Made by a program: the position numbers and the translations under genes
Part shown: positions 48,339-48,797 of the stretch, piece by piece
Layout: every line of letters starts with the position of its first letter
Numbering within the stretch: position 1 is the first letter of the stretch
Notes under the pieces: model-generated
What the model was told of the DNA's origin: nothing
What the model saw: the letters and a program-made list of their open reading frames with translations, nothing else
Database searches by the model: none
Source: Escherichia coli
GTDB lineage: Bacteria; Pseudomonadota; Gammaproteobacteria; Enterobacterales; Enterobacteriaceae
DNA: 64,000 bases
Reading direction: 5' to 3' (one strand)
NCBI RefSeq assembly: GCF_013122565.1
Contig: NZ_CP053258.1

Positions 48339-48797
48339 TCTGTAAATATTATTTAGCCGTAGTAATCACTCGCCGTAATTATTACGGCTAAATAAACATC
48401 AGCATCGCTTATTAATATTTGTTCTTTTGTGCGGCTTAGCATTTGGAAATTATTGACGCCAATTATAAATTCTATTTTTCTTACACGATTCAGCTAATGA
48501 ATCTTTATTTTCTCACCACCCAGTTGTCACTTTAATGATAATTATTTGTTAAATAATTGTTTTATTTTATATTGGTTATACCAATTGCCCGCCAAAACGC
48601 CTTCTGCACTACCCTTTCGTTATAACGCCCTTTTGCAACAGCTTCTTAAAATCAACTTGATATGTTTTGCAACATATGTGACCTGATAGCCAAATCCAAG
48701 TAACAGGAATTTAATCATGTTTACAGTAATGTAACCTTCCCGTAAAATGCCCACACACTTTAAACGCCACCAGATCCCGTGGAATTGAGGTCGTTAA

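Follow-up and report, generated by a model that had tools for sequence, protein, structure and literature searches.

The window analysed here is a 64-kb stretch of Escherichia coli DNA, taken at its full length. In the E. coli RefSeq genomes that match it at 96-98%, the genes yajG, ampG, cyoA and cyoB lie in this order and all on the same strand. A spacer of 459 bp separates ampG from cyoA. Its G+C content of 28-37% agrees with a first-pass annotation, made from the sequence, which had described A/T-rich DNA leading toward cyo. The features of the junction are collected in Table 1.

Table 1. Features of the ampG-cyoA junction, in window coordinates except where K-12 numbering is given
Feature	Position	Strand	Basis or remark
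ampG CDS, muropeptide MFS transporter	46863-48338	+	491-aa ORF; ampG annotation in matching E. coli RefSeq genomes
ampG stop codon TAA	48336-48338	+	Hairpin begins 10 nt further on
Long hairpin, 5' arm TTATTTAGCCGTAGTAATCAC	48349-48369	+	Inverted-repeat search, folds; outer 8 nt covary
Hairpin loop TCGCC, 5 nt	48370-48374	+	Differs among taxa, even within E. coli
Long hairpin, 3' arm GTAATTATTACGGCTAAATAA	48375-48395	+	Inverted-repeat search, folds, alignment, covariation
Hairpin in E. coli K-12	about 452,023-452,069		Numbering of Adams et al. 2021
Inner palindrome GCCGTAAT-T-ATTACGGC	48372-48388	+	Second hairpin of the first-pass annotation
Four-repeat ArcA site	48524-48566		Park et al. 2013 supplements
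PdhR box	48570-48586		PMC7660256
C-rich, G-poor stretch	48587-48616	+	Sequence variable, composition kept; rut-like
cyoA core promoter TTTACA-17-TAAAAT	48717-48748	+	Promoter scan; -10 at 48743-48748
Three-repeat ArcA site 'cyoA1', over -35/-10	48717-48748		Exact match, Park et al. 2013 supplements
cyoA CDS	48798-49745	+	ORF; RefSeq annotation

A long hairpin downstream of ampG

An inverted-repeat search returned two arms of 21 nt each, 90% complementary and 5 nt apart, just past the end of ampG. Folding of the + strand as RNA gave a hairpin comprising 18 bp, a C/A mismatch, 2 bp and the 5-nt loop. The minimum free energy of the 81-nt hairpin region was -24.5 kcal/mol (z = -5.7), a value that none of 200 shuffles equalled. 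The hairpin alone folded at -22.7 kcal/mol with pair probabilities >0.99. In E. coli the - strand hairpin is as stable as that of the + strand, and as single-stranded DNA the hairpin has an energy of -13.2 kcal/mol. The stem is A/U-rich, with 6 G-C pairs among approximately 20. Just 3 inverted repeats with arms of at least 16 nt within 40 nt occur in the 64-kb window; the ampG hairpin is the longest and is far beyond chance expectation. The one other long, close palindrome of the window lies in the panE-yajQ spacer (58074-58121), where a perfect 18-nt inverted repeat (TATCCCTTAATTGTGCAT / ATGCACAATTAAGGGATA) encloses a 12-nt loop.

An Rfam scan of positions 48000-49000 on both strands, at E values up to 10, produced no family match. 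The hits were chance matches to miRNA-type hairpins, with E values of at least 1.6 and far under the gathering scores.

The first-pass annotation had described nested inverted repeats here. Its outer repeat, ATTTAGCCGTA (48351-48361), is indeed the exact reverse complement of TACGGCTAAAT (48383-48393), and a second palindrome, CCGTAAT-T-ATTACGG, is present at 48373-48387. The coordinates of the nesting were thus correct but its shape was not, the outer repeat being the middle of the hairpin with 21-nt arms. Two mutually exclusive hairpins had further been proposed, to be checked by RNA folding. The folds do exclude one another, since they share the 3' arm, but folding yielded the one long hairpin and a negligible inner fold, with an energy of -9.0 kcal/mol and equilibrium pair probabilities of 4e-9 to 1e-8. 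The inner helix was paired in 53.7% of cells over 46 taxa, compared with 53.2% in shuffles (193 of 500 shuffles as high), with no covariation and no conservation outside Escherichia. A two-state RNA switch was therefore ruled out, by an inner share of ~1e-8, by the energies (-9.0 against -22.7 kcal/mol) and by the missing conservation. The inner palindrome is a by-product of an Escherichia-specific T-to-A change in the 3' arm, and is present in that genus because one base pair of the long stem has been swapped there. For annotation, the "nested hairpins" are not a switch.

Distribution and compensatory change

Conservation among E. coli strains, which the first-pass annotation had proposed to check, proved extensive. 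By blastn, the 61-nt hairpin region was found in 5424 of 5426 complete E. coli genomes, 125 of them identical and the rest with 1-3 differences. The comparison with K-12, also proposed, showed the hairpin to be kept; the common K-12 allele carries a C to T change at 48358, whereby a G-C pair becomes G.U on the + strand. Rare E. coli variants fall in the loop or at single stem positions, and the loop of strain AHM8C160RI reads CCGGC. Over 48250-48850, the best match among the 5426 complete genomes reached only 97.8% (K-12, 96.7%), and the lineage of the window is, as judged from this stretch, not closely represented among them.

A scan for AmpG in one genome per species provided 80 loci from other Enterobacteriaceae. 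The core CCGTTGTAATCAC-N5-GTAATTATAACGG lies downstream of ampG in 56 of the 80, the genera including Salmonella, Citrobacter, Klebsiella, Raoultella, Enterobacter, Kluyvera, Leclercia, Trabulsiella, Yokenella and others. A Pseudocitrobacter locus was additionally recovered by a covariance model, and remodelled hairpins were recognised by eye and with RNAfold at one Buttiauxella locus and at loci L050, L069 and L080.

Only a single site was found by a pattern search allowing 3 mismatches, by covariance model R1 (window plus ~640 kb of loci) and by blastn against the E. coli genomes: the window, every 6-kb locus and every E. coli genome contain one hairpin site each. The second "place" returned per E. 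coli genome is most simply explained as a match of the palindrome to its own opposite strand. A repeat family, whether REP/BIME or another many-copy palindrome, was rejected because all searches gave one locus only. In common with REP/BIME, the ampG hairpin is an extragenic palindrome at a gene 3' end and could block exonucleases; unlike them, it is single-copy and locus-specific and is without REP-like G+C-rich sequence. A mobile origin was likewise unsupported. Viral contigs held no exact match to the degenerate core pattern. One match was obtained in a phage collection and six in a plasmid collection, five of these in records of 1.2-4.9 Mb, and all look like E. coli chromosomal DNA that has been mislabelled.

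Covariation was counted for the 21-pair helix on an ungapped alignment of 46 taxa and 61 columns. Pairs were counted on the stated structure because RNAalifold returned none on this alignment. The helix was paired in 77% of cells compared with 70% in shuffles, and its covariation score was 0.184 compared with 0.094, none of 500 shuffles scoring as high. When the partners were slid by 1-3 columns, the score was at most 0.101. On 24 taxa over 170 nt, the long hairpin helix was the sole structure that RNAalifold predicted, and a larger conserved RNA structure incorporating downstream blocks was rejected on this result. These counts indicate that the pairing of the long hairpin is under selection.

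The lower stem has been rewritten repeatedly between taxa with complementarity kept, and at least 8 bp covary. Its arms read UUAUUUAG/CUAAAUAA in E. coli, CUAAUAAG/CUUAUUAG in a Klebsiella MAG, GGUUAUUUC/GAAAUAACC in Enterobacter, GUUAUUCG/UGAAUGAC in Trabulsiella and GCGAGUCCUGA/UUGGGACUCGC in Pseudocitrobacter. The upper stem, CCGUUGUAAUCAC-N5-GUAAUUAUAACGG, is near-invariant across genera, with a G.U pair in 42 of 46 taxa and, two positions from the loop, either a C/A mismatch or a U-A pair. Its single clear change is the T-A to A-T swap of E. coli, in which the pairing is preserved and the sequence is not; its two mirrored halves are CCGTTG to CCGTAG and ATAACGG to ATTACGG. No loop motif is conserved in the 46-taxon alignment. 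The stem measures 20 bp in E. coli; about two-thirds of the folded taxa have one of 20-33 bp, and in many taxa lineage-specific flanks lengthen it to 25-33 bp, sometimes across the ampG stop codon.

Strand preference and mapped 3' ends

The + strand folds better in 28 taxa versus 17, with mean energies of -17.9 and -15.6 kcal/mol, respectively. Outside two fixed columns, 46 G.U pairs (open to + strand RNA only) were counted against 30 A/C oppositions (open to - strand RNA only). From sequence, the G.U excess and the fold energies would weakly favour ampG-sense RNA, the counts being ones that ignore phylogeny. The C-to-U variant of K-12, which makes a G.U pair, is a further hint in favour of + strand RNA.

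The hairpin is a stable stem-loop, as are intrinsic terminators and U-less protective loops. The first-pass annotation had remarked that a canonical T-run is lacking, and none follows. In E. coli, the 12 nt after the stem on the + strand are AAACAUCAGCAU and the tail on the - strand is UAUUUACAGAUU; neither has a U-run, and the hairpin was not called by a simple terminator scan. The U-tract is a defining part of intrinsic terminators (PMC6061677), and a 7-8-nt U-rich tract directly 3' of the stem is not found in E. coli. The ampG hairpin is therefore like an intrinsic terminator in its position right after the stop codon and in a folding energy that is comparable or greater, but differs in having no U-tract on both strands and so few G-C pairs. 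Among the 46 taxa, 6 possess a T-rich + tail (at least 6 T in the next 10 nt), these being Klebsiella/Raoultella, Yokenella and Superficieibacter, and the terminator scan accepts the homologue in Yokenella. In 12 of 46 taxa (Enterobacter, Leclercia and some Citrobacter) an A-run on the + strand immediately precedes the hairpin; the Enterobacter homologue fails the scan despite the resulting U-run on the - strand.

Mapped ends were consulted in the Term-seq tables of Adams et al. 2021 (PMC7815308), whose K-12 coordinate equals 500,418 minus the window position, a mapping verified with two of their listed ends. This check, which the first-pass annotation had also proposed, came out against a 3' end at the hairpin. 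Under the conditions shown, no end is listed on either strand between 451,980 and 452,099, nothing is listed within about 40 nt of the hairpin on either strand, and in two coordinate-sorted lists a cyoA-internal end is followed directly by the "ampG int" end. Too weak an expression of ampG, or incomplete tables, may account for the absent end. The bicyclomycin table of the same study places a Rho-dependent site early in ampG rather than in the spacer. Supplements of two other transcriptome papers contain no ampG entry; in the literature searched, no terminator or small RNA is described between ampG and cyoA and the hairpin sequence was not found. The "ampG int" end itself maps to window position 48025 (feature 48004-48025), 313 nt before the ampG stop. 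It belongs to an abundant ORF-internal RNA that was detected by northern blot, co-immunoprecipitated with Hfq and formed chimeras with CyaR (Adams et al. 2021, PMC7815308).

As there is no U-run on either strand and no listed Term-seq end, the E. coli hairpin cannot be a self-sufficient intrinsic terminator. A weaker version, in which the hairpin alone releases polymerase at the end of ampG as a weak or factor-assisted intrinsic terminator, would suit a stable hairpin directly past the stop codon and the T-rich tails of the Klebsiella/Raoultella, Yokenella and Superficieibacter homologues. It is, however, very unlikely in light of the E. coli tail, which the scan does not call, the absent U-tract and the lack of a mapped 3' end in Adams et al. 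2021. The first-pass annotation had suggested that the repeat insulates cyo from ampG read-through. A boundary role remains reasonable for a conserved element at the ampG 3' end and the upstream edge of the cyo control region.

We also considered termination on the - strand, of antisense or divergent transcripts or of a small RNA from the cyo control region, or termination in both directions. The A-runs of 12 of 46 taxa are U-runs on that strand, where the E. coli hairpin is no less stable. Two conserved blocks nearby (48416-48455 and 48481-48495) are without an assigned function, and a promoter-like - strand site, TTAACA-18-GACAAT, exists in 14 of 41 taxa. However, conserved promoters are lacking on the - strand. 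In E. coli the site just named ends in C (GACAAC), and only UAUUUACAG follows the hairpin. The scan failure in Enterobacter, the absence of a - strand 3' end in Adams et al. 2021, the absence of an Rfam match on either strand and the preference of G.U pairs for the + strand all point the same way, as does a 29-aa - strand ORF (48353-48442) whose ATG is lost in other genera. We consider this possibility quite unlikely, and a - strand small RNA was rejected for want of a promoter conserved in the 41 aligned spacers and of a listed 3' end. A coding role was rejected too: small ORFs overlapping the spacer are not conserved across genera, and a 1-nt indel breaks the frame within the conserved block.

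RNase III is suited by about two helical turns of duplex RNA; the E. coli hairpin has 18+2 bp, and many taxa offer 20-33 bp. The element might then be a sequence-specific RNA, either an RNase III substrate that retroregulates ampG or severs read-through before cyo, or a docking site for a protein. Such a role would agree with the stem length in about two-thirds of taxa and with the near-invariant upper stem, its fixed G.U pair and its recurrent C/A mismatch; no stable 3' end would be seen at the stem base because cleavage would occur inside the stem. Conversely, we know of no requirement for conserved sequence in RNase III substrates, structural constraint alone can yield an invariant central stem, and the loop has no conserved motif. 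On balance this role appears rather improbable. The lambda sib / tI retroregulator is an RNase III-cleaved 3' hairpin downstream of int. By analogy, the ampG hairpin is long and downstream of a gene, and its fate could decide the stability of the upstream mRNA. The alternative folds of the first-pass annotation recall sib as well, but ampG has no conserved alternative fold.

The cyo control region and the proposed role of the hairpin

The spacer is a mosaic of blocks that are conserved like the hairpin arms. The TTTACA-17-TAAAAT promoter is the sole promoter-like site kept in 41 of 41 aligned spacers, and a second, upstream cyo promoter beside the hairpin was rejected, as none is conserved in this set. 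The blocks at 48416-48455 (ATATTTGTTCTTTTGTGCG...TTTGGAAATTATTGA) and 48481-48495 (TTACACGATTCAGCT) are conserved like the ArcA and PdhR sites; they contain no conserved RNA structure and no conserved promoter, and together with the other conserved blocks of the spacer they deserve assignment. A conserved palindrome, CGTTATAACG (about 48616-48628), contains a half-site, CGTTRTAA, which the hairpin arms of other genera also carry. An exact direct repeat, TTTTGCAACA, occupies 48631-48640 and 48665-48674, its copies 34 nt apart and about 80-125 bp upstream of the cyo start site.

The hairpin keeps a constant distance of 438-456 nt to the cyoA start codon. Five loci have insertions of 40-290 nt, ERIC-like in three Citrobacter loci (L011, L025 and L015) and G+C-rich and palindromic in two others (L046 and L078). 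All lie between the ampG stop and the hairpin, leaving the hairpin-cyoA distance untouched.

This arrangement bears on a reading at the DNA level, in which CCGTTRTAATYAC-N5-GTRATTAYAACGG would be a 31-bp palindromic operator for a putative cyo or ampG regulator, possibly a polymerase roadblock. Both upper-stem arms are conserved in sequence, asymmetries included. The hairpin is the most upstream of the equally conserved cyo-control blocks, some of which are published ArcA and PdhR sites; its distance from cyoA is fixed, with insertions tolerated only on the ampG side; and the related palindrome CGTTATAACG lies at 48618-48627. However, an operator should keep its half-site in every lineage that keeps the site, and in E. 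coli each half-site is changed, T to A in one and A to T in the other at mirrored positions, with the pairing kept. Furthermore, an operator has no need of a lower stem that covaries over at least 8 bp, and the site is about 360-410 bp upstream of the cyo start site. Comparison by eye with consensus sequences (ArcA, Fur, CpxR, TyrR, NagC, IHF, Ter/Tus, sigma-54, KorB and attC) gave no fit in spacing or sequence. The three ArcA ChIP-seq regions upstream of cyo all stop short of the hairpin (Park et al. 2013), and the PdhR gSELEX site falls elsewhere in the spacer.

An operator is, in our estimation, unlikely. The protein binding that the first-pass annotation had offered as its alternative is weakened: the near-invariant upper arms speak for it, but the E. 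coli double change and the covarying lower stem do not. More broadly, a previously undescribed, sequence-specific cis-regulatory element of the Enterobacteriaceae, acting as an RNA duplex bound by RNase III or a different protein, or as a DNA operator or roadblock, and linking ampG, whose product is a permease of peptidoglycan recycling, to the heavily regulated cytochrome bo3 operon rather than capping the mRNA passively, is conceivable but unlikely.

The interpretation we favour, tentatively and with a probability of roughly 0.4, is that the hairpin is a protective, U-less 3'-terminal stem-loop of the yajG-ampG mRNA and that Rho stops read-through before the cyo promoter. Rho-dependent transcripts of E. 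coli have precise steady-state 3' ends just past stable stem-loops without a U-tail (PMC6061677). These U-less loops shield the RNA from PNPase and RNase II, the sequence downstream of them has C in excess over G, and a gain of U's can convert them into intrinsic terminators (Dar and Sorek 2018, PMC6061677). The single-copy ampG hairpin, deeply conserved through compensatory changes, was assigned to this class because of its structure, the missing U-run, the excess of C over G downstream and the U-tails found in scattered genera.

According to the favoured interpretation, the stem-loop (48349-48395) would be transcribed at the start of the ampG 3' untranslated region, within its first 60 nt. 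RNA polymerase would not be released there and would continue into the untranslated, T-rich spacer, where Rho would load on C-rich, G-poor RNA at ~48587-48616 and halt it before the cyo -10 (48743-48748). The tail would be trimmed by 3'-to-5' exonucleases as far as the hairpin, which would resist them and so set the mature ampG 3' end. Hairpin and Rho would between them prevent transcription of ampG from entering the crowded control region of cyo.

The composition of the spacer bears on the Rho step in both directions. Downstream of the hairpin the + strand is T-rich, and from about 48450 to 48700 its C exceeds G two-fold (GC skew -0.29 to -0.39). Within 48587-48616, mean C is 0.40 and mean G 0.13, and 40 of 41 taxa have C>G; this may be a Rho-utilisation-like stretch for transcripts that pass the hairpin. 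Conversely, the first 75 nt past the hairpin have G>=C (C>G in only 4 of 41 taxa), and the C-rich stretch is 190 nt from the hairpin and about 30 nt long. Its distance and shortness are a weak point of the favoured interpretation.

Other observations also count against the favoured interpretation. Members of the U-less class should have a steady-state 3' end immediately past the stem, and none is listed in Adams et al. 2021. A near-invariant upper stem is more than a mere exonuclease barrier needs, and the stem is A/U-rich and about twice as long as is ordinary for terminators or protective loops. In comparison with the loops of Dar and Sorek, the ampG hairpin is similarly stable, U-less, situated just past the coding sequence and followed, further downstream, by C>G sequence, and in some genera it has gained the U-rich tail that their model predicts as a switch. 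It differs from them in its roughly doubled, A/U-rich stem, in the conservation of its sequence across genera, and in showing neither a 3' end nor a bicyclomycin effect in Adams et al. 2021. The hairpin is best classed with the U-less 3' stem-loops of Rho-terminated mRNAs, as a new member that is unusual in its length and conservation.

Should the favoured interpretation be correct, the junction would present a clean, deeply conserved U-less loop paired with Rho termination and bordering a strongly regulated operon, and a test case for the insulation of co-directional neighbour genes. Because the hairpin is unusually long, nearly invariant in its upper stem and absent from Rfam, there is room for a specific partner, either a protein or RNase III, in which event the hairpin would be a small new regulatory motif at the ampG/cyo junction.

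In E. coli EC529 (L004), the IS30-like element ISApl1 is inserted in the spacer at the equivalent of ~48547, inside the four-repeat ArcA site, and this insertion should alter the anaerobic repression of cyo.
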